DNA from: Candidatus Brocadiia bacterium
GTDB taxonomy: Bacteria; Planctomycetota; Brocadiia; CAIUPP01
Direction: 5' to 3'
Assembly (NCBI GenBank): GCA_050015075.1
Contig: JBEKCB010000021.1
Location: 1 to 64,000, forward strand
DNA length: 64,000 bases
Both the position numbers and the translations under genes were made by a program. The notes below the pieces were generated by a model. It ran no database searches. It had not been told where the DNA came from and saw only the letters and a program-made list of their open reading frames with translations. Positions 1 through 13,291 of the stretch are shown here, piece after piece (the first letter of the stretch is position 1; the number at the start of each line of letters is the position of its first letter).

Positions 1-2607
1 CTTCTCCTCGGAAAGCGGCGCCATCGAGACGTAATAATCCTGCCCTTCGACGTTCACCGGCACGATCGAGCGCACCATGTCCATCCCGGGCCGGGCGTCC
101 AGCATGTCCTGCAGCGCCGTCTGGGGCTGCGGATCGTGGAGGGTGATGTGGAGTTCGCCGGTGGCCGGCTCAGTGAAGGACATCACCCGCAGGTGAGTCT
201 CCTTGGACCTGGCGATCGTATCGAGGTCGCTGTCCTTGCCATAGACGGCCATGTCCCGGCCGATCTCGGAACCGGCGTCTTTGCCGAACCCGATGACGCG
301 CAGGTCCTCCGGCAGGACGTCGCCGGGTTTCATTTTCAGGATGTCGCGGTAAATCGCCTGGCGCACCGCCTCGGTGGAGCGCGTTCCCGCGAGGTGGATC
401 GGCACGTACCTGCGGCCCGCGGCGGCGCCTTCGGCGTGGGTCACATCCTCGGTGGTCACCGGGTCAATCGTCACGACCACGGTCTCCTGCCCGATCAGCG
501 ATTCGAGCGCGTCGAGCACGGCGGCGATCCGGGTCTCCGGGTTGAACTCGATGGCGGAGGCCTTCAGCTTCACGGAGAATTCCGAAGGCAGCCGCTCCTT
601 CTCCTTATCCATCAGCGTGATCCGGCGGATGTCGGATTCCGCATAGCGCCGCCTGGAGAGCAGGTCGCGAAGCGCCAGCGGGCTGATCGGGCGCGCCAGG
701 TGCAGGGTGAAATCCCACGACTTGGGGTCGGGGTTCTTCTCCACCGTGCCGTAAAGCTGCTGCGCCCTCAGGAGATCCACGAAGTCCTCGCGCATCTTCA
801 CCTGCCGCTGCTCATCGGTGAGCTGGCGGATGCGAATCGAGAACAGCTTCCCCTTCTCGGCCTGCAGCCCGGCCTCGGCGGTGGACCAGACGCTCTGCAC
901 GTCCGCGCCCATCGGGAAGAGCTTGGCGACGCGCTCGCGGAAATCGCTGATCGGCTCGCTGCGCTTCAGCTCCATTTCCGCGCGGAAGCCGCCGGCCAGC
1001 TCCGTATCGCGTTCGTAATTCCACCGCGCCACGAACACGCTCAGCCCGGCGATGCCGAAGAACACCGTGCCGGCGATGCAGATGTACCGGTACTTCGAAA
1101 ACGGGATGTTCGGCCGGCCGAAGAGGTGCATCATGTGCAGCTTGGTGAGCCAGCCTTTCTCCACGACGACATCCAGGAGCCAGCGCGTGACCCAGAACGA
1201 GGTGAACAAGCTGAGGACCAGGCCCAGGATGAGCGTGATGGCGAACCCGCGCACCGGCCCGGTGCCGACGCCGAACAGGATCAGCGCGGTGATGATTGTG
1301 GTCAGGTGCGTATCCAGGATGACCATGAAGGCGCGTTCGTAGCCGGTGCGGATCGCCAGGCGCAGCGTTTTGCCGCGCTGGCCTTCCTCGCGGATGCGCT
1401 CGTTGATCAGCACGTTCGCGTCCACCGCCATGCCGAGCGTCAGCACCAGGCCGGCGATGCCCGGCAGCGTGAGCACCGACTGCATGCCCGCCATTCCGCC
1501 GAGGACCAGCAGCAGGTTCACCAGCACCGCGAAGTCCGCGATGGCGCCGCCGACGAGGTAGTAGACCGCCATGAAGGCCACGACCACCACGAGCCCGACG
1601 AGGCTCGCCCGGATTCCCGCGCGGATGCTGTCCTCGCCGAGCTGCGCGCCGACGGTGTTGTTCCATTCCAGCTCGATGTCCGCCGGAAGCTGGCCGGCGC
1701 GGAGCGTGGTGACCAGGTCGTCCACTTCCTGCTTGGTGAAACTGCCGGTGATGACGCCGGACCCGGAGATGCGCGAGTGGATTTCGGGCGCGGAATAGAG
1801 GTCCTCGTCGAGGATGATCGCCAGCAGCCGGCCCGGATGCTGTTCGGTGCGCTGGTACTGGTCCGTCAGGCGCTCGAAGTCCTGCCGGCCCTTGCCGTGG
1901 AACGAGAAGGCGACCGTCGGCATGCCCGTCTGCGGGTCCGTGGTCCCCTTCGCCTCGCTGAGGTACTCGCCGGTGACGTAGGCCTTGTTCTCGACGAGGT
2001 ACCACTCGTGGGTCGAGACGTCGGGCGGCAGGTCCTTCACGTCGCGGAAGGTGGCCTTGTGCCAGCGCCTGATCTTGCCCTGCGGGTCGCGGTCAATCTG
2101 GTGGGTCACCGGGTCGCGCGCGGGCAGGAACGGCGTGGTGTTGGCCACGCGGTCGCCGCGCCGCGCCGCTTCCATGTCCTCGGCGCGCTCGTCCACCAGG
2201 CAGAAGCGCAGTTGCCCGGCCTTGCGGATGAGCGCCTCGATCCGCGCCGACTCCTCCGCGCCCATGCCCGGAAGCTGGATGTAGAACCGGTCCTCGCCGC
2301 GCGGGCGGATGTCCAGCTCCATGCGGCCGTCCGGGTCCACGCGCCGGCGGATGACCTCGATCGTGCGCGCCACGATGTCCTTGCGGTCCGCCGCGCTCAT
2401 CTCGGACGTGCGGATCTTGTAAAGCAGCTCGCTGCCGCCCTTCAGGTCCAGCCCGAGCGGAATGCGCGTCACCCAGTGGGTCAACGGCTTGCCGTCCGGC
2501 CCGGTCTCCGTGATGCGCTCCGGGTGGATCGCGATCGCGCCGATCACCGCCAGGATGACCACGAGCGCGAGCTTGAAATACAGCTTCGGAAGTATCTTGC
2601 CCATCAT
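1..2607 (-). CDS. secDF: Protein translocase SecD/SecF fusion (3' end runs off the window)
   Basis: Manual minus-strand translation from ATG 2607 gives MMGKILPK...IPLGLDLKGGSELLYKI (SecD motif), later LPGIAGLVLTLGMAVDANVLINERIREE and a second GLDFREG (SecF) motif; follows yajC. Absent from the ORF track because it has no stop in the window. Confidence 0.92.
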   Translation of the reverse strand, partial: MMGKILPKLYFKLALVVILAVIGAIAIHPERITETGPDGKPLTHWVTRIPLGLDLKGGSELLYKIRTSEMSAADRKDIVARTIEVIRRRVDPDGRMELDIRPRGEDRFYIQLPGMGAEESARIEALIRKAGQLRFCLVDERAEDMEAARRGDRVANTTPFLPARDPVTHQIDRDPQGKIRRWHKATFRDVKDLPPDVSTHEWYLVENKAYVTGEYLSEAKGTTDPQTGMPTVAFSFHGKGRQDFERLTDQYQRTEQHPGRLLAIILDEDLYSAPEIHSRISGSGVITGSFTKQEVDDLVTTLRAGQLPADIELEWNNTVGAQLGEDSIRAGIRASLVGLVVVVAFMAVYYLVGGAIADFAVLVNLLLVLGGMAGMQSVLTLPGIAGLVLTLGMAVDANVLINERIREEGQRGKTLRLAIRTGYERAFMVILDTHLTTIITALILFGVGTGPVRGFAITLILGLVLSLFTSFWVTRWLLDVVVEKGWLTKLHMMHLFGRPNIPFSKYRYICIAGTVFFGIAGLSVFVARWNYERDTELAGGFRAEMELKRSEPISDFRERVAKLFPMGADVQSVWSTAEAGLQAEKGKLFSIRIRQLTDEQRQVKMREDFVDLLRAQQLYGTVEKNPDPKSWDFTLHLARPISPLALRDLLSRRRYAESDIRRITLMDKEKERLPSEFSVKLKASAIEFNPETRIAAVLDALESLIGQETVVVTIDPVTTEDVTHAEGAAAGRRYVPIHLAGTRSTEAVRQAIYRDILKMKPGDVLPEDLRVIGFGKDAGSEIGRDMAVYGKDSDLDTIARSKETHLRVMSFTEPATGELHITLHDPQPQTALQDMLDARPGMDMVRSIVPVNVEGQDYYVSMAPLSEEK

Positions 2608-2623
2608 GATGGAAGCGGGACTC

Positions 2624-3013
2624 CTACTGCTTCTTGTCTTCGGCCGAACCGGAACCCTGCGTCAGGATCTCATGGATCGCGCCGCGCCGGAATTTGAGCG
2701 TGGTGCCGCGCTCGCGGTCCACGAGCAGGATGACGTACTCCTCCTTGGAGTTGACGCTTTCGACTTCGCCGAAGAGGCCGCCGATGGTGACGACCTCCGC
2801 GCCGCGTTCGAGCTTGCTGAGCATCTCCTTGCGCTGCTGGTCTTTCTTCTTCTGCGGGCGGATCATCATGAAGTAAATGATGGCGAAGATGGCGATGATC
2901 CAGATGAAGAACATCGGCGAGAAGGGCGATCCGCCCGCTCCGCCGGCGGCGCCGCTCGGTGCGCTGGCGGTGCCGGCGGCTTGGGCCAGGATCGGCATGG
3001 TCAGACTCAGCAT
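2624..3013 (-). CDS. yajC: Preprotein translocase subunit YajC
   Basis: IIYFMMIRPQKKKDQQRKEMLSKLERGAEVVTIGGLFG motif; lies between tgt and secD; start re-assigned to ATG 3013. Confidence 0.93.
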   Translation of the reverse strand: MLSLTMPILAQAAGTASAPSGAAGGAGGSPFSPMFFIWIIAIFAIIYFMMIRPQKKKDQQRKEMLSKLERGAEVVTIGGLFGEVESVNSKEEYVILLVDRERGTTLKFRRGAIHEILTQGSGSAEDKKQ

Positions 3014-3035
3014 GGGGCTTCCTTTCACAGAGGTC

Positions 3036-3096
3036 GGAAGTGCGAGTGATGAATGATGAAGCACTTCATCACTCATCGCTCATCGTTCGCACTTCC
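3036..3096. repeat. Inverted heptamer-repeat element (GAGTGAT/GAATGAT ... ATCACTC/ATCGCTC)
   Basis: GGAAGTGCGAGTGATGAATGATGAA-GCAC-TTCATCACTCATCGCTCATCGTTCGCACTTCC; overlaps the tgt stop codon. Confidence 0.75.
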
Positions 3097-4184
3097 TGAA
3101 AATCCTTCCGGAACTCCCGGAAACGGCGCTCGATGATCGCTCGGCGCATCTCGGCCATGAGGCGCATGTAATATCTGAGGTTGTGCAGGCTCAAGAGCGT
3201 CAGGCCCAGCATCTCTCCGGCCTGGAAGAGATGCCTCAGATACGCGCGCGAAAACCTTCGGCACGCCAGACAATCGCACGACGGATCCAGCGGCCGCTCG
3301 TCCGCCCGGTGCGCCGTATTGCGCACTTTTACCCGACCACGGGTGGTAAATGCAAGTCCGTTTCGCCCACAACGCGTCGGAAGCACGCAATCGAACAGGT
3401 CCACGCCCTGCGCCACGCAGGCCACGATGTCCTCCGGCCGGCCCACGCCCATCAGGTAGCGCGGCTTCGCCGGAGGCAGCCGTTCGACCGTCACGCCGGT
3501 CATTTCCACCATCAGGTCGAGCCCTTCGCCGACGCTCAGCCCGCCGATGGAATGGCCCGGGAAATCGAGCGCGGCCAGCCGGTCGGCGCACTCGCGGCGC
3601 AGGTCCGGGTACGTCGCGCCCTGCACGATGCCGAAGAGCGCCTGGTCCTCGCGCCGGTGCGCGGCCTTGCACCGCGCCGCCCAGCCGATCGTCCGTTCCA
3701 TCGCCGCCCGCGCGGGCGCCTTCTCGCTCGGGAACGGCGCGCATTCGTCCAGCGGCATGATGACGTCCGCGCCGATCTGGTTCTCCATCTCGATGCACCG
3801 CTCCGGCGTCAGGAAAATCTCCCGCCCGTCCAGGTGGCTCTTGAACAGCACGCCGCCCTCGGAGATCGTCCGCAGGTCGGCCATCGAGAAAATCTGGTAA
3901 CCGCCGCTGTCGGTCAGGATCGGCTTCGGCCAGCTCATGAACCGGTGCAGCCCGCCCATCTGCGCGATCCGGTCCGCGCCGGGCCGCAGGCCCAGGTGAT
4001 AGGCGTTCGCCAGAATCATCTGCGCGCCGACCTCCTCGAGCTGCACCGGCGTCAGCGTCTTCACCGTCCCCTGCGTCGCGCAGGGCATGAAGAGCGGCGT
4101 CGGCACCGTCCCGTGCGGCGTGACGAACTCGCCCGCCCGCGCGCCGGTGTCGGTGTCCTGGGCCAAAATGCTGAACTCGAACAT
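3069..4184 (-). CDS. tgt: tRNA-guanine transglycosylase
   Basis: TDSGGYQ, GIVQG, GGLSVGE, DLFDCVLPTR and CDCxxC...H zinc site. Confidence 0.97.
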   Translation of the reverse strand: MFEFSILAQDTDTGARAGEFVTPHGTVPTPLFMPCATQGTVKTLTPVQLEEVGAQMILANAYHLGLRPGADRIAQMGGLHRFMSWPKPILTDSGGYQIFSMADLRTISEGGVLFKSHLDGREIFLTPERCIEMENQIGADVIMPLDECAPFPSEKAPARAAMERTIGWAARCKAAHRREDQALFGIVQGATYPDLRRECADRLAALDFPGHSIGGLSVGEGLDLMVEMTGVTVERLPPAKPRYLMGVGRPEDIVACVAQGVDLFDCVLPTRCGRNGLAFTTRGRVKVRNTAHRADERPLDPSCDCLACRRFSRAYLRHLFQAGEMLGLTLLSLHNLRYYMRLMAEMRRAIIERRFREFRKDFQEVRTMSDE

Positions 4185-4185
4185 G

Positions 4186-4297
4186 CTCGTCCTCGTCGTC
4201 GGTCGTTCTCTTCGTCCTCGTCCTCGTCCTCGTCGTCGTCCTCGAACCGCCGTTTTGAACGACCGAGGACGAGGACGACGACGAGGACGAGGACGAT
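4186..4297. repeat. Inverted hexamer-repeat element (CTCGTC)n ... (GACGAG)n
   Basis: Degenerate CTCGTC tandem arm, short spacer, then GACGAG tandem arm; between spoIID and tgt. Confidence 0.85.
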
Positions 4298-4316
4298 TCC
4301 CTGCTACCGCGGGTCT

Positions 4317-5705
4317 CTAGTACAGCTTCCCGATCGCGCAATTGCGGTAGTAATGCATCAGGATTTCCCGGTACAGCCGTCCGACCCTGGCCATGCCGCG
4401 GCAGCCGTACTGGCACATCCCCGCGCCATGGCCGAAGCCTCGGCCGGTGAACCGGAAGTCGCCGCCGTCGGCGCGGCACTGGAACTTTCCGCTTTCGATC
4501 TCCATCCGGCCGACCGCGCGGCGGAAGTCCACGATCGGGACCAGCGCCGACCCGCCCGGCCAGTCCAGCTTCACCATCCGCCCGGTGCGCGGGTCGCCTT
4601 CCTCGGCGGTGACGGCCGTGATCGCGCCGACGGCGATGCCGGCCGCCTTCAACTTCGATTCCAAGTCCACGGCCGAAAGAGTCGCCTTCCATTCATAGTG
4701 GCTCGAATCAGTGCAGAACCCGCACGGCACGCCCACCAGGAAATCGTATTCCGGCTTGCCGAGCGCCTTGCCGGGGCTTTCCGTCTCGCCGCCGCAGGTC
4801 GAGTGGTAGAACGCCGGGAACAGTGCGCCGTCGTGCAGGAGCACCTCGCCGCGCGTGGCGCCCACCGCCTCCACGATGGACGGCTTGGGCTTCCCGGCGC
4901 CGAACACCTGGTCCTCGACCGTGCTGGTCAGGTCGTACTCCAGGGCGGCGCGCTGCAGGTGATAGAAGATTGCCAGCGTCCGTGCCGCGACGGCCTGCGC
5001 CTTGAGCGCCTCGGCCGGCCAGTCCGCCGGCATCTCGCCGCCGACGACGCTGAGCAGGTAGCGCTCGGCGTCCACCACGACGATGACCGTCACCCGATCC
5101 GCCGAGCGCAGCAGCCGGATCGTGCCGGGATATTCGCGGCCGCCGATTCGAACCTGCGCGCCGGGTTCGGCCTCGATCTCCAGCGACGAGCACTTGTACA
5201 GGACATCGCCAAGCCGGATGCCGCCCGGGACGACGGCGGCTTTCGCCGGCGCAATCCGGAAGTGGCGCTTCGCCTGCTCGTCGGGAAACACCACCACGCG
5301 GCACGGCCCTGCGCACGAAATCTCGGGCGTGGCCGAGGCGTCGGAAAGCCAGAGCCGCACCATCGGCGCCCGCTCGAACTTCGGCGGCACGATGATCGCC
5401 GGCAGCGCCGGCTGAGCCGGCGGCGGCGCGGGCTGGATCGGCGGCGGGCTCGGCGGCGCCGTCGGGATCGGCGGCTGCACCGGCGGCGGCGCCTCTTCCA
5501 CGGCCGGCGGCGCAGCCGGCGGCGGCGCGGCGCTCCTCCGCGGATGCACGCAGCCGGATAACGCGAGAATGCAGAATGCAGAGTACAGAATGCAGAGCGC
5601 AGAATGGAAAGCGAAGCCGGCCTTGCGCGAATTCAGCGCGTTTCGTTGCCGTTCACTCCCTGCTCTGCATTCCGCACTCTGCATTCTGCACTCTGCGCTC
5701 ATCAT
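4317..5705 (-). CDS. SpoIID/LytB-domain peptidoglycan hydrolase, probable lipoprotein
   Basis: YLLSVVGGEMPADWPAEALKAQAVAART, YHSTCGG, GFGHGAGMCQYG; lipobox LSGC; ATG 5705 overlaps the queH stop (ATGA). Confidence 0.9.
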   Translation of the reverse strand: MMSAECRMQSAECRAGSERQRNALNSRKAGFAFHSALCILYSAFCILALSGCVHPRRSAAPPPAAPPAVEEAPPPVQPPIPTAPPSPPPIQPAPPPAQPALPAIIVPPKFERAPMVRLWLSDASATPEISCAGPCRVVVFPDEQAKRHFRIAPAKAAVVPGGIRLGDVLYKCSSLEIEAEPGAQVRIGGREYPGTIRLLRSADRVTVIVVVDAERYLLSVVGGEMPADWPAEALKAQAVAARTLAIFYHLQRAALEYDLTSTVEDQVFGAGKPKPSIVEAVGATRGEVLLHDGALFPAFYHSTCGGETESPGKALGKPEYDFLVGVPCGFCTDSSHYEWKATLSAVDLESKLKAAGIAVGAITAVTAEEGDPRTGRMVKLDWPGGSALVPIVDFRRAVGRMEIESGKFQCRADGGDFRFTGRGFGHGAGMCQYGCRGMARVGRLYREILMHYYRNCAIGKLY

Positions 5706-6330: not shown

Positions 6331-6657
6331 CTACAATACGGCATTAGACGTGGCCCTGATGATGTCGCCGATCATGGCCTCGCCTTCATATTCCTCGGGC
6401 GTGAGAGTCACAATATCGAACGGAAGCCGGAACCTTCTCATGGCGCGAATTTCGACATCCTTTGTAAGGCGCGCACGTTTGAAGGCGTCCTTGCCTCGAA
6501 ATGAAGGCGAGATGATGGCGACGTCAACGTCGCTTTCCTCGGTGGCCACACCTCGAGCGCGAGAACCGAACAGGACCACCTTGGGCTCTGCCAATCCTGA
6601 TTCGGCAACGCGCCGCTCCAGGTACCTCACGATTTCGGCAATTCTTTTTTCAGCCAT
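6331..6657 (-). CDS. Minimal nucleotidyltransferase (MNT)
   Basis: LFGSRARG...SDVDV motif, 108 aa, overlaps the HEPN gene. Confidence 0.88.
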   Translation of the reverse strand: MAEKRIAEIVRYLERRVAESGLAEPKVVLFGSRARGVATEESDVDVAIISPSFRGKDAFKRARLTKDVEIRAMRRFRLPFDIVTLTPEEYEGEAMIGDIIRATSNAVL

Positions 6658-7016
6658 CGAACGGTCTCCCGAGCTTGTCTAAGAAACTGGCGCGTCCGGG
6701 TCTTCGGAAATTCACGGATTAGCTTGTCCATGTCTTCCGGGTATCGCGTCATCACGCTCATCCTGTTGAGCATGAACAAGAAATCCGACCGTTCCTTTGT
6801 CACGGAGAGCTGCAAGTTCTGCGTCAGAAATGCCAAGTTATGAGTCTTGGGCGGGACTTGCTTGCGCCTTGCCATATACACTGCTTTGAGGGCTTTTTCC
6901 ACAGAGAGGTGGCACATGAACGCGGTGTAGAAGTATCGTCGCGCGTCGAACATCGCTTGGGCGGTGGCAATATCATACTCGGCCTGACGCATCCACTCTT
7001 CTGATGTATTCGCCAT
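6627..7016 (-). CDS. HEPN-domain protein (HEPN-MNT pair)
   Basis: W..QAEYD, CHLSVEKALKA, PKTHNL, TRYP motifs. Confidence 0.88.
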   Translation of the reverse strand: MANTSEEWMRQAEYDIATAQAMFDARRYFYTAFMCHLSVEKALKAVYMARRKQVPPKTHNLAFLTQNLQLSVTKERSDFLFMLNRMSVMTRYPEDMDKLIREFPKTRTRQFLRQARETVRWLKKELPKS

Positions 7017-7027
7017 GGTCAGCCTCG

Positions 7028-8056
7028 TCAACTCTCGAACAGCCCGCCGCGCCCGGCGCCCGGAAGACCCTTGCCGTAGTCGCGCTGCGCCGACTCGGTC
7101 GCTATCCGGCCGCGCGGGGTCTTTTCGATGTAGCCCAACTGGATCAGGTACGGCTCGTAGACCTCTTCGATGGTGGACTCTTCCTCGCCGATGGTCACGC
7201 CGATGGTCTTGAGCCCGACCGGCTGGCCGCGCTGGCGCAGGATCGTCTGCAGGATGCGCCGGTCCATGTCGCCCAGGCCGCGCTCGTCCACGCCGAGGCG
7301 GTCGAGTCCCTCGTGCGCGACCTTCTCCGTGACCACGCCGTCGGCCTGGACCTCGGCGATGTCGCGCAGCCGCCGCAGGAAGCGGTTGACCAGCCGGGGC
7401 GTGCCGCGTGAGCGCCGGGCGACGACCTCCGCGCCGGCATCCTCAATCCTCATCTTCAGCGCCTTCGCCGAGTTCAGCGCGATGTGGAACAGATCCTGCC
7501 ACGGATAAAAATCCAGCCGCTCGACCACGCCGAACCGGCTGCGGAACGGCGCGGACAGCAGCCCCTCGCGCGTCGTCGCGCCGACCAGGGTGAACCGCGG
7601 CAGCGAAACCCGCACCGACCGCGCCGACGGGCCCTGGTCGAGCATGATGTCAATGTGGTAGTCCTCCATCGCGGAGTAGAGGTACTCCTCGACGGTCGCG
7701 CTGATGCGGTGGATTTCGTCAATGAACAGCAGGTTGCCGTCGTCGAGCTTCGACAGCAAGCCGGCCAGGTCGCCGGCCTTCTCGATCACGGGGCCGGAAG
7801 TCTCCTTGATATCGGAGCCCATCTCGTGCGCGAGGATCTTGGCCAGCGTGGTCTTGCCGAGCCCGGGCGGGCCGCTGAACAGGAGGTGGTCGAGCGGCTC
7901 CTTGCGCCGGCGCGCGGCCTCGATGTAGATGCGCAGGTTCTCCTTGAGGCGCTCCTGCCCGATGAAGTCCTCGAACCGCCTGGGCCGCAGCGTCTGGTCC
8001 AGCGCCAGGTCCTCGGCTCCGCCGGCGGCGGTCAGGATGTTCTCAGCCACGCGCAT
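7028..8056 (-). CDS. ruvB: Holliday junction helicase RuvB
   Basis: LRPRRFEDFIGQ, GPPGLGKTT, FIDEIHR, GATTREG, EPYLIQLGYIEKTPRGR. Confidence 0.97.
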   Translation of the reverse strand: MRVAENILTAAGGAEDLALDQTLRPRRFEDFIGQERLKENLRIYIEAARRRKEPLDHLLFSGPPGLGKTTLAKILAHEMGSDIKETSGPVIEKAGDLAGLLSKLDDGNLLFIDEIHRISATVEEYLYSAMEDYHIDIMLDQGPSARSVRVSLPRFTLVGATTREGLLSAPFRSRFGVVERLDFYPWQDLFHIALNSAKALKMRIEDAGAEVVARRSRGTPRLVNRFLRRLRDIAEVQADGVVTEKVAHEGLDRLGVDERGLGDMDRRILQTILRQRGQPVGLKTIGVTIGEEESTIEEVYEPYLIQLGYIEKTPRGRIATESAQRDYGKGLPGAGRGGLFES

Positions 8057-8086
8057 CTCCAATTACGACTCGAGACAACGGATTGC

Positions 8087-8902: not shown

Positions 8903-10231
8903 CTACTCGCGCGACTTCAACGACAGACCGTAGCTCGCCAGTTTCTGCTTGACCTCGTTGAGCGAAGTCTGCCCGAAATTCGGGCACGAGAGGAGGTCCT
9001 TCTCGGTCTTCTGGATCAGATCGCCGACGGTCTCGATGCCGAGCGTGCGGGCGCACTTGAGGCTGCGGACGGAGAGCTCCATCTCGTCAATCGGGCGCGT
9101 GAGCGCGTCGGCCATCTCGGGCGAGGCGATCGCCGCGGGCGCCGGCCCCGCATCGGTCCGGCCCATGCCGAAATGCAGCCCCTTCGACTCCAGCAGCCCG
9201 CGCAGTTCGGCCAGCGACGTCTCGCCGAAGTTCTTGGAATTGCCGATCTCCGTCTCGGTCAGCCGCGCGAGGTCGCCCAGGGTGCGGATGTTCATCTTCT
9301 CGAGGCAGGCGCGGCAGCGGGCGGAGAGTTCGAACTCGCTCAACGGCACGCGGAGCAACACGGCGGTGCGGTGCTGGCGGCGCTCCACGGCCTCGTCGTA
9401 GAACATATTCAGGCTCGCCTCGGCGTCGGCGGCGTACAGCCGCGCGCGCGGGTCGCCCGGGTTGCCGGCCGCCACGCGGGCGAAGGTGCGCAGGGCGCGC
9501 TCGTAGTCGCCCCGGTCCTCGTAGAGAATCCCCAGGTTCATCAGCGCGTTCGTGTGGAGCGGGCGGATCTCCGCGGCCTTCTCGTAATAATCCAGCGCCC
9601 GGTCGTCGTTGCCGCGCAGGTCGTTCCAGAAACCCAATCGGAACAGCGCGCCGACGTGCTGCGGATCGAGTTCCACGGCGCGCTCATACGCCTCCATCGC
9701 CGCCTCGTAATCGGCGGCCTCTTCGAAGCAGCGGCCCTTCTGGTAATGGAGTTCCGCCTGGGCGTCGTGGGTCTTCTGGAAAGCGCGGATTTTCGCCAGC
9801 GCCTCTTCGCGGTTGCCCGCGCCGCGCAGCGCCTCCGCCTCCGCCATGCCGCAGACGAACGCGTCCTGCCCGGCCTGGGCGGCCCGGTGAAAACTCTTGA
9901 CCGCGCCGGCGTAGTCCTTCGTCTCCAGCCGGCACAGGCCCAGGAAATAGGCGCCGTCCGCGTCATCGCTCACCGGCTCCAGCGCCGCCGCGGCCTCGGC
10001 GTATTTCCGCTGGATCCACAGCCCGACGCCGGCGACCAGAGCCGACCGCACGCGCACATCCGGCGCATGCGAAGTCTTGTAGCGCTGCTGCGCCTCGCCG
10101 GTGAGTTTCTCCAGGATCGCCATCTCTCCGGAAATGCTGTACGCCAGCTCGCGCGCGTGGAGAAAATCGAGCCGACCCGCCTTCGGGTCTTCCATGATTT
10201 CGCTGATCGCGGCCTTCTTCCCCTCCGCCAT
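8903..10231 (-). CDS. TPR protein with two C-terminal RNA polymerase alpha-CTD-like domains
   Basis: TPR-like helices, then ELSARCRACLEKMNIRTLGDL...NFGETSLAEL and ELSVRSLKC...TVGDL...NFGQTSLNEVK. Confidence 0.88.
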   Translation of the reverse strand: MAEGKKAAISEIMEDPKAGRLDFLHARELAYSISGEMAILEKLTGEAQQRYKTSHAPDVRVRSALVAGVGLWIQRKYAEAAAALEPVSDDADGAYFLGLCRLETKDYAGAVKSFHRAAQAGQDAFVCGMAEAEALRGAGNREEALAKIRAFQKTHDAQAELHYQKGRCFEEAADYEAAMEAYERAVELDPQHVGALFRLGFWNDLRGNDDRALDYYEKAAEIRPLHTNALMNLGILYEDRGDYERALRTFARVAAGNPGDPRARLYAADAEASLNMFYDEAVERRQHRTAVLLRVPLSEFELSARCRACLEKMNIRTLGDLARLTETEIGNSKNFGETSLAELRGLLESKGLHFGMGRTDAGPAPAAIASPEMADALTRPIDEMELSVRSLKCARTLGIETVGDLIQKTEKDLLSCPNFGQTSLNEVKQKLASYGLSLKSRE

Positions 10232-10345
10232 GCGGTATATTCCTTTCAGTCAGTCTGAACATCGCGGCGGCGGATTCCGCCGCCTGTGAATTCCGGCCGG
10301 AGCGCGTTCTTTCTGAAGGTTGCGGACGCCTGAACGCATCCAGAA

Positions 10346-10374
10346 TTTATAGCAGAATCAATTCCGCAACGCAA
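10346..10374 (-). promoter_or_regulatory. sigma70-type promoter for the TPR/alpha-CTD gene
   Basis: TTGCGT-N17-TATAAA with TGn extension on the minus strand. Confidence 0.55.
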
Positions 10375-10451
10375 GGCGCACGAACGAAGAGCTGCGATTC
10401 ACTTTGAAGGAATGATGGGCAAAGGACCGGCTTGAAGCTGCGCGGCTATGC

Positions 10452-11075
10452 TCAACGCCAATTAATCGGACGACACAGGACGAAACCGCCGGGTTTCGGC
10501 ACCATGTCGGGGAATAGACTTTTTGCGTACTTTGTGCGTCCGATGACGAAGGAGGCGTAGGCAAGCCGGGCAAGGCGATTAGAAATACGGCCCGCCGGAA
10601 AGGCGACGATCACCTTTTTCGCGGGGAACAATCGTTTAATGGCCTCAAGCGGGGCGGCCAGATCGCTATCGCCCGATACGAGAATCGCTGTATCAAACTG
10701 ATTCTGAAAGGCGTCCGTCATCATTTCGACGGCGATGTTAACGTCAGTCATTTTCTCTTCTGGTGCCATCCAGCTACGTTTACAGTGGGGGCACAAAACT
10801 GAAGATTGCAGGTAATGACCATAATAGATGCGGAATTCAGGCAGCGTTTCTAGCGCCTCCAAGTAGATAGCCTGCCGATGGCTCTTATCTAGGTCGTGGT
10901 GGGACCCCGAAACGCGGCTTGTGAAGTACTTCGTGCGCGCTAGCACTTGATCGGGTTTCAGCAGATTCATCATCAACTGGTGAATGTTGAGCCAGTAAAA
11001 CTGCCGCCAGCCCCTTTCTTTAAGGCCAAAATAGAGGTTGAAACCGTCAATGTAAGCTATCACGCGCGTCGGCAT
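10452..11075 (-). CDS. NYN-domain (PIN-like, LabA/DUF88) nuclease
   Basis: YIDGFNLY, EEKMTDVNIA, LVSGDSDL acidic motifs plus CxxC; lower GC than flanks. Confidence 0.9.
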   Translation of the reverse strand: MPTRVIAYIDGFNLYFGLKERGWRQFYWLNIHQLMMNLLKPDQVLARTKYFTSRVSGSHHDLDKSHRQAIYLEALETLPEFRIYYGHYLQSSVLCPHCKRSWMAPEEKMTDVNIAVEMMTDAFQNQFDTAILVSGDSDLAAPLEAIKRLFPAKKVIVAFPAGRISNRLARLAYASFVIGRTKYAKSLFPDMVPKPGGFVLCRPINWR

Positions 11076-11136
11076 ATAACCCCTTGCCCACTATTATGAT
11101 GTGGCAATGTCACGACTTTTAACGCTAAAGTTTTCC

Positions 11137-11165
11137 TTGACAGGGGCCGATAATCGGATTAGAAT
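11137..11165 (+). promoter_or_regulatory. Near-consensus sigma70 promoter facing away from the NYN coding sequence
   Basis: TTGACA (11137-11142)-N17-TAGAAT (11160-11165). Confidence 0.7.
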
Positions 11166-11171
11166 GCCAGT

Positions 11172-11241
11172 GGAGTTGCCCCCCCGGCGATAGTATCGCT
11201 GGGCCGACGCCCTCCCGCTTTGCGGGAGGGCGTTTCTTTTT
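11172..11241 (+). ncRNA. Candidate ~70 nt two-hairpin sRNA antisense to the NYN 5' leader
   Basis: Follows the promoter; hairpin CCCGGCGAT/ATCGCTGGG, then 12-bp hairpin ACGCCCTCCCGC-TTT-GCGGGAGGGCGT and a T-tract; no ORF. Confidence 0.6.
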
Positions 11242-11252
11242 ATACTGCGAGG

Positions 11253-11281
11253 ACTCTACCACGCTCCATCTGATTGTGCAA
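11253..11281 (-). promoter_or_regulatory. sigma70-type promoter for NYN
   Basis: TTGCAC-N17-TAGAGT with TGn extension on the minus strand. Confidence 0.55.
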
Positions 11282-11289
11282 GCAAATTG

Positions 11290-11480
11290 CTATCCGGGTA
11301 GTCTTGTACGATCCGCCCGATTGATGCTACCGCCCTTCCTATGGGGCACCTCCTGTTTTTCAAGCATCACGCCTAGATCGGCCACCGTCCAAACCTTGTC
11401 GGTAATCCCATAGCCATAGGCCGCGTAACCCGAGGCAACTTGTGAGTCCGGCAAAAGCTGTAAAAGAAGCCAGCATTCAC
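11290..11480 (-). pseudogene. Frameshifted C-terminal remnant of an IS1-family transposase
   Basis: Manual translation FFYSFCRTHKLPRVTRPMA / GITDKVWTVADL resembles the YNFCRxHxxLxxTPAMAAGxTDxxW terminus of IS1-type transposases. Confidence 0.6.
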
Positions 11481-11487
11481 TCGACCG

Positions 11488-12748
11488 TCACTTGCCCGCG
11501 GGGTTCCCTTGTGCCCTGCCCTCGCGCGTTTCCGCCGCCGGCGTATCGCCGTTCCTGATTTCTTCCTCCTCGTCCACGTTCACTTCCAGCAGGTGCCTGG
11601 GCAGGAAGATGAGGCCCGCGATCAAGGTCGGCACGACCGCGCTGGCCATCACCACCGCCACGAGGAAGGAATACTGCTCGCGCGTCACAATGCTGTGGCT
11701 GAGGCCGTAAAGCGCCGAGATGGTCCCGAAGGTCAGCCCGGTGGACATCATCAGCGTGTAATACCAGCGCTCCTTGTGATTTTCGCGGAACCGGCCGATC
11801 ACCGGGTACAGGCCGAAAATCTTCGAGACGACCTTGCCGCCGAGAAGGAGAAAGAAGACCGCCGGAGCGGCCAGGATCGCGCCGACGCCGACCAGCGACC
11901 CGGCGCGGATGAAGTAAAACGGCGTCAGCAGCCCCACCGTCAGCGTCCTCAGCCGCCGCACCCAGTGCTGGTCCTGCGCGGCCGCGCCGGCGAGCGCCAT
12001 GCCCGCGATGTAGGCCGGCAGCACCGCTTCGCTCCCCGACCAGAGCGCCAGCGCCCCGAGGCCGAAGAGCACCAGCAGCACCCACTTGGTCCGGATCGCC
12101 GCCGTGCGGAAAGCGTACCGGCGCGTGAGCCGGCCGGTCAGGAACGGCAGCGCGCCCAGGAGCACGGCGCTGGTCCCGACGAAGATCGCCGTCTTGTACG
12201 TGAACGGCGCGAAGATCAGCCCCAATGCAATCACCGTCCCGAGGTCGTTGATGAAGCACGCCCCGAGGATTCCCTTGCCGAAGTCGGTCTTGTTGAAGCC
12301 CGTCTCGAGCATGACCGCGTACACGACGGCCATGGAGGTGGTCGAGAGCGCCACGCCCGCCAGCCAGCTCGCCCGCGCGTCCCAGTGGAGCAGATAGTAC
12401 GCGGCCGCCGTGCAGCCGAGAAACGGCGCGGCGAACCCGATCGCGCCGACGACCGACACTTCCTTCCATTTCGCCCGGAGCACCGCCGGTTCCAGCTCGG
12501 CCCCCGCGAGGAACGTGAGCACCACCGCGCCCGTGCCCGCGAGGAACCGCAGCCAGTCCAGGTTCGACCCGAGCGAATCGGCGCCGAAGTAACGCGTCGC
12601 GGCCGTCCCGGCCGCGATCCCCACGCAGATTTCCACCAGCGCCGTCGAGATTCGGATGTGATTGGCCAGGACCGTGGCCACCACGGCGAGCCCAAGCCAG
12701 ATCGCGGCGATGGTGTAGGCATTGGTCATCGAGAAGGCGGCAGGCATG
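11488..12748 (-). CDS. Cation:proton antiporter (Na+/H+ exchanger family)
   Basis: Many hydrophobic segments, FLAGAELE, LSTTSMAVV, CFINDLG; start at ATG 12748 after GGAGA. Confidence 0.88.
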
Positions 12749-12823
12749 GAGTCTCCCTGGAGCCGGTTTAACATCACGGCAAAAAAGCTAGCGAATTACA
12801 CGGAGCGTCCGAGCGGTAAACAA

Positions 12824-13012: not shown

Positions 13013-13048
13013 ACCACGCGGCTTCAACTCCCACCGTGCCGGCGCACA

Positions 13049-13102
13049 CGATAGGAGTCATCAGCCGGACGTTGGCGTTTATACGGGGGACTCCATCCCC
13101 AG
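13049..13102 (-). promoter_or_regulatory. Fluoride (crcB) riboswitch
   Basis: GGGGATGGAGTCCCCCGTATAAACGCC...GGCTGATGACTCCTATC matches the crcB aptamer pattern; upstream TTGCAT...TATAAT promoter at 13110-13139. Confidence 0.88.
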
Positions 13103-13291
13103 GAAAACGATTATACCGAACAGGGAACGGAAAATGCAAAGTGCAACATGTGAGCCCGGATTTGCCCGACACGCCGGAAAGCCGCCGGGAATGAACTTGA
13201 CAGAGGCCGCTTCGAGGGTACAATACCTCCGTCTGGAACTGGTCCTCCTCAAAGGGACAGTCCCCTTCGAAACTCCCAATGGAGATGGAAG

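Follow-up and report, generated by a model that had tools for sequence, protein, structure and literature searches.

A conserved, structured small RNA gene linked to HEC-09 NYN genes across bacterial phyla

Results

A small RNA gene accompanies the NYN gene

We analysed a stretch of 64,000 nucleotides (nt) from a Candidatus Brocadiia bacterium (assembly GCA_050015075.1, contig JBEKCB010000021.1, positions 1 to 64,000; hereafter, the window), which carries a gene for a NYN-domain protein and, upstream of it on the opposite strand, a gene for a small RNA. The protein belongs to the PADLOC family HEC-09 (Hma-embedded candidate 09), introduced by Payne et al. as an NYN/MARF1-like putative ribonuclease (RNase) in their preprint (bioRxiv 10.1101/2024.01.29.577857). 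The RNA gene is new, widespread and structured, and it is tightly linked to HEC-09 NYN genes across phyla and genomic contexts. That it is real, conserved and NYN-linked we regard as nearly certain. The locus is probably a compact two-gene module in which a HEC-09 NYN ribonuclease is accompanied by a dedicated RNA of ~60–70 nt with its own near-consensus sigma-70 promoter and terminator.

Relatives of the window protein numbered 7140 at E ≤ 0.001 among 7195 candidates (cluster representatives), and the 119 listed besides the window protein were 55–83% identical. A scan of one genome per species matched at least 601 stretches, 572 of them with a relative; the best 80, from many phyla, are referred to as loci L001–L080. 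When the window's upstream region was compared with these by blastn, 63 nt of the RNA matched in 48 of the 80 loci (58 hits at E ≤ 0.01). The 58 copies and the window copy form alignment A2, from which a covariance model, R1, was built. The aligned copies share, in order, a sigma-70 promoter, the motif A-CCCC-(C/G)-CC, a hairpin whose top, GAUAGCAUC, is conserved, the motif (G/C)CCGAC, a G+C-rich terminator whose base is conserved and whose top is variable, and a U tract.

Over the window and the 80 loci (704 kb), R1 gave 93 matches at E ≤ 3.8e-9; apart from the single window match, these fell in 78 of the 80 loci (92 matches). Matches in the 48 loci that contributed to R1 follow by construction; among the independent loci, which had no blastn match and lay outside the training of the model, 30 of 32 were matched. 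The matches lie no more than ~450 nt from NYN with two exceptions, in L060 and in the third copy of L075. Eight further weak matches on the reverse strand were to terminators. The two loci left unmatched were L013, even with filters off, and L034, whose upstream sequence is just 115 nt long; blastn found no match to the RNA in E. coli genomes. The initial annotation of the window, made from the sequence alone, had paired the NYN gene with a small RNA and proposed a search for a conserved motif upstream of NYN homologues. That search supports the pair as real, and a chance association of promoter and terminator is ruled out by the conservation.

Selection acts on the transcript

Purifying selection on the RNA is strong and concerns its sequence as well as its structure. 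Within the helices of A2, 94.9% of cells pair, and compensatory changes on both sides occur in 11 of 17 pairs (116 cells); none of 500 shuffles reached any of these measures, and sliding the partners lowered pairing to 42–49%. A second alignment, A3, holds 33 sequences outside the model (the 30 independent loci plus the plasmid loci L081, L085 and L086). As an alignment fitted to the model, A3 showed pairing in 96.5% of cells and compensatory changes in 15 of 17 pairs. For hairpin 1, compensatory changes were seen in six of nine pairs in A2 and in all nine in the independent A3. The helices hold 80 G-U against 7 A-C cells, which indicates the strand of the RNA.

Expression signals were found at both ends of the element. 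A promoter matching at least 9 of 12 consensus positions was present within 50 nt upstream of 71 of 95 RNA copies, compared to 1.9% of 2000 random 50-mers; at a threshold of 10 of 12 the values were 51 of 95 copies and 0.4%. The −10 box most often ends 6–7 nt before the A of ACCCC (34 of the 71 copies with at least 9/12), so the RNA probably starts near this motif. About half of the 24 copies with a weak promoter are second or third copies of tandem arrays, and the rest mostly reach 8/12. Past the terminator stem, the next 8 nt contain a mean of 5.7 T (59 copies).

The RNA is also better conserved than the gene beside it. Over 49 loci (1176 pairs), mean pairwise identity was 77.9% in the RNA core, 66.4% at NYN codon positions 1 and 2 and 36.0% at position 3, and the NYN protein averaged 53.2%. 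A small protein in place of the RNA was ruled out: the helices covary, and the variable segment is not a multiple of three in length (remainders of 0, 1 and 2 in 26, 15 and 18 copies, respectively). Stop-free frames are common in this G+C-rich stretch and hence uninformative on coding.

The module in the window

The features of the module are collected in Table 1. The window protein matched Pfam NYN (PF01936) over residues 5–169 (E = 6.1e-12; 46.7 bits against a cut-off of 24.2) and the PADLOC HEC-09 profile over residues 3–207, corresponding to profile positions 2–203 of 203 (E = 2.7e-82; 273 bits). Pfam and PADLOC gave no other families, and specifically none of ToxN/AbiQ, CptN or TenpN. The acidic residues D10, D111, D121, D128, D136 and D138 were invariant across 21 homologues; these aspartates are of a catalytic type. 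Its sole solved relative found by sequence is 2qip_A (E = 0.004), of unassigned function. As the initial annotation had described, the NYN gene is solitary. No protein antitoxin gene lies beside it in the window, and relatives embedded in Hma systems leave no room for one.

Table 1. Features of the module in the window, by position
Feature	Position	Strand	Basis
Lower-G+C islet carrying the module, between the TPR/RpoA-CTD gene and the Na+/H+ exchanger-family gene	10250..11480		G+C profile, Pfam
Putative NYN ribonuclease gene, 207 amino acids, member of PADLOC candidate family HEC-09	10452..11075	-	Open reading frame, Pfam NYN, PADLOC HEC-09
Likely ribosome-binding site AAGGGG, 4 nt 5' of the NYN ATG	11080..11085	-	Sequence reading; putative function
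Weak candidate NYN promoter TTAAAA-18-CATAAT, 9/12	11093..11122	-	Scan; not conserved in relatives
Small-RNA promoter: -35 TTGACA (11137-11142), 17-nt spacer, -10 TAGAAT (11160-11165)	11137..11165	+	11/12 consensus positions
Small RNA of ~70 nt free of open reading frames, 97 nt upstream of NYN	11172..11241	+	Start predicted from -10 box, 3' end from U tract
Single-stranded 5' tail ending in a conserved C run (relatives: A-CCCC-C/G-CC)	11172..11182	+	Alignment A2
Hairpin 1, 9 base pairs, conserved top GAUAG(U/C)AUC	11183..11203	+	Covariation in A2 and A3
Terminator hairpin (11206-11234) and U tract (11233-11241); base GACGCC...GGCGU conserved, top variable	11206..11241	+	Scan, alignment
Doubtful NYN promoter of the initial annotation, TTGCAC-17-TAGAGT, 3+4 = 7/12	11253..11281	-	Sequence present; not reported by the scan

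A promoter scan of positions 9500–12500 returned three promoter-like sites, compared to 0.7 ± 0.9 in shuffles, and the plus-strand promoter proposed by the initial annotation was present as described. The predicted RNA had been said to consist of two hairpins and an intrinsic terminator. A short RNA free of open reading frames (ORFs) that ends in a terminator was recovered, with one hairpin followed by the terminator hairpin itself. The terminator hairpin has 13 pairs, 10 of them G-C, and a loop of 3, and is followed by TCTTTTT; the 5' tail is ~5 nt longer than in relatives. The 74 nt from 11172 to 11245 fold at −41.9 kcal/mol compared to −25.1 ± 3.3 kcal/mol for shuffled sequences (z = −5.1), none of 200 shuffles being as stable. 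R1 matched positions 11173–11249 (73.8 bits, E = 8.4e-20), its only match across the 64 kb. We also noted by eye that in all A2 terminator stems the 5' strand is pyrimidine-rich and the 3' strand purine-rich, never the reverse, while the sequence of the upper stem varies freely.

At the gathering score, Rfam 15 gave a single match in the window, a fluoride riboswitch elsewhere, and none at the RNA locus. With the threshold relaxed to E ≤ 10, the locus matched only PyrR (22.8 bits, where 54 are needed) and mmgR (16.4 bits, where 41 are needed), both driven by the terminator. Membership of a known RNA family was consequently ruled out. No transfer RNA or transfer-messenger RNA was found in the window.

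Placement of the RNA relative to NYN

In 70 of the 78 loci with a match, the RNA lies upstream of NYN on the opposite strand, as in the window. Four loci (L015, L022, L038 and L045) carry it directly upstream on the same strand, and four (L037, L044, L051 and L060) carry it only downstream, pointing at NYN. The downstream-only loci hold four copies in L037, two in L051, one in L044 and one, at 2.5 kb, in L060; L039 has one copy on either side of NYN. Same-strand loci follow the order promoter, RNA, terminator, NYN, with the terminator between RNA and NYN in L015, L022, L038, L045 and the Streptomyces plasmid locus L085. In the window, the terminator points away from NYN.

Two to four copies of the RNA occur in 14 of the 80 loci. 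The space separating NYN from the Hma methylase gene in L037 holds four copies (4658–5044), each with its own promoter. In L054, three copies follow one another directly (3739–3926), with a promoter on the first only, and in at least L054 and L055 the extra copies directly follow the preceding terminator, lacking promoters of their own. The tandem copies of L037 and L054 have diverged and kept the fold. An extra copy in L075 (1679–1746, minus strand; 39.8 bits) lies 2.3 kb from NYN, just 5' of an AAA_15/AAA_21 ATPase gene (1803–3221).

At least eight changes of layout are needed on a quick FastTree phylogeny of 91 NYN proteins, in which many branches are poorly supported. The sister loci L085 and L086 (support 100) differ in layout, the former being same-strand and the latter opposite-strand; the four same-strand loci group together in a single clade (support 99). 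The NYN tree conflicts with taxonomy, as expected of a mobile gene. Because the same RNA is kept upstream on the same strand or downstream of NYN, an antisense overlap with the NYN leader is not a conserved requirement. We think it likely that the RNA acts in trans on the NYN system, since its pairing survives repeated changes of strand and side while its sequence stays fixed.

Transcription of NYN and a possible antisense component

The initial annotation had described the two genes as convergent, with the RNA cis-antisense to the NYN leader. Under this type I-like explanation, the NYN messenger RNA (mRNA) would have its start upstream of the RNA gene, owing either to a weak promoter or to read-through from the preceding gene, and the RNA would pair perfectly with its leader; the mRNA would then be cut, for example by RNase III, or the convergent transcription would collide, and NYN expression would stay low. 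The prevalence of the opposite-strand layout agrees with such a scheme, as does the spacing of the genes. Of 69 opposite-strand layouts, 56 have the first model position within 93 nt of the residue-4 codon (median 73). Once the promoter (~31 nt) and the coding part (9 nt) are taken off, the median distance from the −35 box to the ATG is ~33 nt, which is too short for a separate NYN promoter; this distance is 7 nt in L011 and 61 nt in the window. Because the start codon is so near the −35 box of the RNA, the start of NYN transcripts probably falls inside the RNA gene or past it in most loci.

Read-through would have the same effect. Where NYN is embedded in an Hma system, the preceding gene shares its strand and stops within a few nt of the 3' end of the RNA (3852 compared to 3859 in L017), so transcripts reading through from it would cross the RNA gene in antisense. 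The exchanger-family gene of the window likewise shares the NYN strand, and no minus-strand terminator was detected by the scan in the interval separating the two. The RNA itself, with a 5' tail, a hairpin and a terminator, has the shape typical of antisense RNAs such as Sok.

Several observations speak against this explanation. No recurrent NYN-strand promoter was found beyond or beside the RNA gene in the 69 layouts. The minus-strand promoter that the initial annotation called well-formed matches at only 7 of 12 positions, was not reported by the scan and has no counterpart at the equivalent site in relatives. The RNA promoter of the window lies closest to NYN and directs transcription away from it, so that the genes are head-to-head unless NYN transcription starts beyond 11245. 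If the weak 9/12 site between the RNA promoter and the NYN start were used, the two genes would be divergent without overlap. A shared bidirectional −10 box is unsupported, TAnnnT occurring on the NYN strand in 28 of 58 loci compared to 39% of shuffled blocks. The RNA is kept in the eight same-strand and downstream-only loci of the 78, in L085 and, as look-alikes, in the plasmid and prophage loci L082, L083, L084 and L087, and the layout has changed repeatedly on the tree. Moreover, complementarity comes automatically to a cis-antisense RNA, whose primary sequence need not be conserved, whereas the core of this RNA is better conserved than the protein-coding positions.

Pairing in trans was not detected either. 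Between the first 36 nt of the RNA and the start of its own NYN gene (−40 to +100), RNAduplex gave a mean z of +0.10 relative to shuffled RNAs (n = 77). The longest perfect complement to the NYN mRNA averaged 6.88 nt compared to 6.74 nt in reversed controls, so that neither the translation start nor the coding region showed an excess. Mimicry of, or pairing with, the SGDSD codons was considered and rejected: the longest matches cluster there without covariation (agreement at 7 of 20 third bases, with 34 of 81 genes readable).

As for the earlier description of a convergent cis-antisense pair, overlap is possible in the common layout, where most loci leave little space for a separate NYN promoter. 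In the window it would require a NYN start past 11245 from a weak, unconserved promoter, and the other layouts keep the RNA regardless. Antisense pairing or interference is thus plausible where the common layout occurs, and neither can be what keeps the sequence of the RNA and its pairing with the NYN gene conserved in the others. As the principal role of the RNA, we consider cis-antisense control less likely than action in trans, and still a serious alternative.

Type I systems such as hok/sok and symE/symR combine a cis-encoded antisense RNA with a small membrane toxin peptide. The module shares with them a short RNA with a strong promoter, the succession of 5' tail, hairpin and terminator, and, in the common layout, a position opposite the region just upstream of NYN. 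It differs in that the putative toxin is a soluble nuclease of 207 amino acids rather than a small hydrophobic membrane peptide, that the mRNA overlap is only predicted, that the RNA is kept in non-overlapping layouts and that its primary sequence is conserved across phyla.

Genomic context and mobile carriers

Context was assessed from the longest neighbouring ORF on each side (158 ORFs, 80 loci). Seventeen of the 80 loci lie in Hma systems, beside a NOV_C helicase, a DUF1156 methylase or a DUF499 ATPase, and the flanks of L017 were confirmed as HmaA and HmaB. Some 20 further loci adjoin restriction-modification, CRISPR (L001, L073), AAA_21 ATPase, TIR, prophage (L035), transposase or plasmid genes. 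The context is defence-rich in about half of the loci; the remainder, like the window, lie among housekeeping or unknown genes. In L001 the cassette of RNA and NYN (NYN at 3995–4612) is placed between cas3 and csd1 of a CRISPR locus, in L035 between the terminase and portal genes of a prophage, and in L073 beside a Cas9-like gene. AAA_21 genes also adjoin NYN in L034 and L042.

The NYN family was found by tblastn on 392 plasmid and three phage records. In the plasmid and phage members L081–L090, NYN is 33–50% identical, and the HEC-09 profile matched where tested (L081–L084). The RNA accompanies NYN on the opposite strand in Thermus oshimai pTHEOS01 (L081, 61.3 bits) and a Microbacterium plasmid (L086, 39.5 bits), and on the same strand in a Streptomyces plasmid (L085, 32.3 bits), where its promoter is TTGACG-17-TATGAT. 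Look-alikes of lower score occur on the same strand in a Phaeobacter plasmid (L083, 14.3 bits) and a Leptospira plasmid (L087, 6.7 bits), and downstream in an M. abscessus prophage (L084, 12.6 bits); one on the same strand as NYN in a 3.5-kb E. coli plasmid (L082) was recognized by eye only. Three distant relatives on other plasmids (L088, L089 and L090) gave no RNA match.

The plasmids of the L082 type, 3461 base pairs long and found in E. coli and Serratia rubidaea, hold little beyond a helix-turn-helix gene, a VbhA-family antitoxin gene and the HEC-09-like NYN gene, with TTGCAA-17-TAGAAT and an ACUACCC-hairpin leader in front of it on the same strand. The NYN gene of L089 (339–701, plus strand; Thiothrix unzii plasmid), which lacks the RNA, is overlapped at its start by 4 nt of the preceding annotated ORF; here a protein partner may stand in place of the RNA.

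Precise insertion between host genes (HmaA and HmaB, after cas3, terminase and portal) would also suit an element that works as DNA, either as a recombination or mobility signal or as a promoter-terminator block shielding the embedded gene, with a functionless RNA. The cassette has no recombinase of its own, and the element sits at its edge. Against this, the excess of G-U over A-C cells, the precisely placed promoter and the compensatory changes point to selection on a transcript; an insulator would need neither the conserved ACCCC tail nor the hairpin top and linker, and a search for direct repeats flanking the window islet gave nothing notable. A role at the level of DNA alone is accordingly very improbable.

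Surroundings of the module in the window

The module lies in an islet with a G+C content of 0.50–0.56 (10250–11450), compared to 0.63–0.73 on both flanks, in line with the initial annotation. The insertion sequence remnant that the same annotation placed next to the islet (11250–11487) was not supported: the segment had no match in Pfam, NCBIfam or plasmid blastn or tblastn searches, and no longer homologous protein was found. The module is not embedded in any defence system, and its neighbours are housekeeping genes. One side holds SecDF, Tgt, SpoIID, a HEPN gene, RuvB, RuvA and a TPR/RpoA-CTD protein, and the other a Na+/H+ exchanger-family gene with a fluoride riboswitch, a CN hydrolase, NosD-like proteins, a gene encoding AIR-synthase-related domains and HypD.

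The protein adjoining the islet (8903–10231, minus strand; 442 amino acids) has an unusual architecture of TPR repeats and two RNA polymerase alpha C-terminal domains. The HEPN-domain ORF (6627–7031, minus strand; Pfam E = 5.9e-21) overlaps the end of ruvB (7028–8062) by 4 nt. The fluoride riboswitch (13045–13109, minus strand; Rfam RF01734, 45.5 bits) lies 5' of the exchanger gene (11488–12777, minus strand; Pfam Na_H_Exchanger). Fluoride-controlled read-through into the module is conceivable because the exchanger gene is on the NYN strand and directly upstream.

Discussion

Type III toxin-antitoxin systems (ToxIN, CptIN and TenpIN) combine an endoribonuclease with an adjacent RNA antitoxin, and in ToxIN the order is promoter, RNA, terminator, toxin. 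Their antitoxin consists of tandem direct repeats encoded on the toxin strand and upstream of it; the RNA is processed by the toxin that it binds and inhibits, and the intervening terminator governs the ratio of the two. The module resembles them in joining an RNase gene to an adjacent non-coding RNA gene with no protein antitoxin and in an RNA that is likely in excess; a minority of loci also show promoter, RNA, terminator and RNase on one strand, and tandem RNA copies recur. By analogy, we tentatively favour the explanation that the RNA is a protein-binding, type III-like antitoxin of the NYN RNase. The NYN protein is the most likely target, since it is the only partner always present and the conserved positions of the RNA are single-stranded or in the hairpin top. 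A neutralising role fits the RNA excess implied by the promoters, near-consensus for the RNA and not recognisable for NYN, and by the multi-copy arrays. An antitoxin would also be consistent with the occurrence of the module on small plasmids, in prophages and in defence islands.

In the mechanism that we propose, abundant RNA would hold the RNase inactive by contacts of its conserved 5' tail (ACCCC), hairpin top and CCGAC linker with the NYN protein. Once RNA synthesis stops, through phage-induced shut-off or loss of the element, the RNA would decay, and the freed RNase could cut cellular or phage RNA, with abortive infection or post-segregational killing as the outcome. Where the common layout occurs, NYN transcripts that read through the RNA gene may also be subject to interference from it.

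A number of points weigh against an RNA antitoxin of this kind. Toxicity of NYN, binding of the RNA to NYN and expression of either are proposals from sequence alone. The module departs from type III in its RNA, which in the window is a single copy with its own promoter and terminator and not a processed repeat array; in its orientation, the RNA sharing the NYN strand in 4 of 78 loci and lying on the opposite strand in 70; and in the toxin fold, which is NYN/PIN-like and not ToxN/AbiQ. The terminator, moreover, does not stand between RNA and NYN in the window, as it does in the same-strand loci. Since the module lacks the repeat array, the shared strand and a ToxN-type toxin, we propose a likeness to type III and not membership. 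The short distance from the −35 box to the ATG speaks for some contribution of antisense pairing or interference, and the count of layout changes depends on a quick tree. In the Hma preprint, a HEC-09 representative with ~150 base pairs of upstream DNA and an inducible promoter gave no protection against the phages tested, and apparent toxicity is reported only for HEC-03 and HEC-04 (bioRxiv 10.1101/2024.01.29.577857).

The lack of defence by HEC-09 in E. coli would also follow if the RNA in that construct was incomplete and the RNA works with NYN as a positive partner, whether as cofactor, scaffold, guide or preferred substrate, in a ribonucleoprotein that gives an unspecific RNase its target or activation signal. 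Co-occurrence, the conservation of loop and linker and independence of layout fit this explanation and the RNA antitoxin equally well. NYN enzymes can, moreover, work on dedicated small RNAs. The CRISPR-associated NYN protein of Bacteroides fragilis is reported as a sequence-nonspecific, Mn-dependent ribonuclease for single-stranded RNA that is thought to trim CRISPR RNA (Chi and White, Biochem J 2024, PMC11346440). Like the cassette between cas3 and csd1 in L001, it is a bacterial NYN RNase in an immune locus linked to small-RNA metabolism. It is, however, a different NYN protein, compared with ours here at the level of the domain, and is described with no dedicated RNA gene of its own. The RNA described here has no variable, spacer-like segment, only the top of the terminator stem varying, and no complementarity was found to the NYN mRNA, the sole target tested. 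Multi-copy arrays and an RNA promoter far stronger than that of NYN fit a neutralising excess better than a stoichiometric cofactor. A positive partner thus seems distinctly improbable to us, and the RNA antitoxin is the explanation that we tentatively retain.

The initial annotation held that such a pairing had not been described, and this agrees with our searches. The RNA matched no Rfam family at the gathering score, and no description of it with NYN, DUF88 or HEC-09 was found in the literature searched, which mostly excluded subscription journals. The main text of the HEC-09 preprint (bioRxiv 10.1101/2024.01.29.577857) does not contain the terms non-coding, ncRNA, sRNA or intergenic, and HEC-09 is described there as a single protein gene. 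Two papers on the discovery of structured RNAs (PMC5737381 and bioRxiv 10.64898/2026.10.21.760802) mention neither NYN nor LabA in their main text, nor, in PMC5737381, DUF88. The window copy is like HEC-09 in matching its profile over the full length, and 17 of its 80 relatives lie between or beside Hma genes; unlike the described system, it stands among housekeeping genes.

A widely used defence-system database lists HEC-09 as a candidate of one gene, with no function demonstrated so far. If the true unit consists of protein and RNA, tests and annotation pipelines restricted to proteins miss half of it, and a second, RNA component would explain why HEC-09 has shown no phenotype as a one-gene system. 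With more reserve, we suggest that a phylum-spanning, unannotated RNA family is the obligatory second component of HEC-09 NYN, and that the two may represent a new class of RNA-protein toxin-antitoxin or abortive-infection systems in which the antitoxin RNA is single, independently transcribed and found in any orientation. The RNA family is large, the protein having more than 7000 cluster representatives, is easily modelled and carries host-independent expression signals. To our knowledge, RNA antitoxins that act on proteins are known for few toxin families. A PIN-like/NYN toxin with a non-repetitive RNA would widen this class and would offer a compact RNA-controlled RNase for study. The example shows, too, that 'embedded' defence genes can bring their own non-coding partners.

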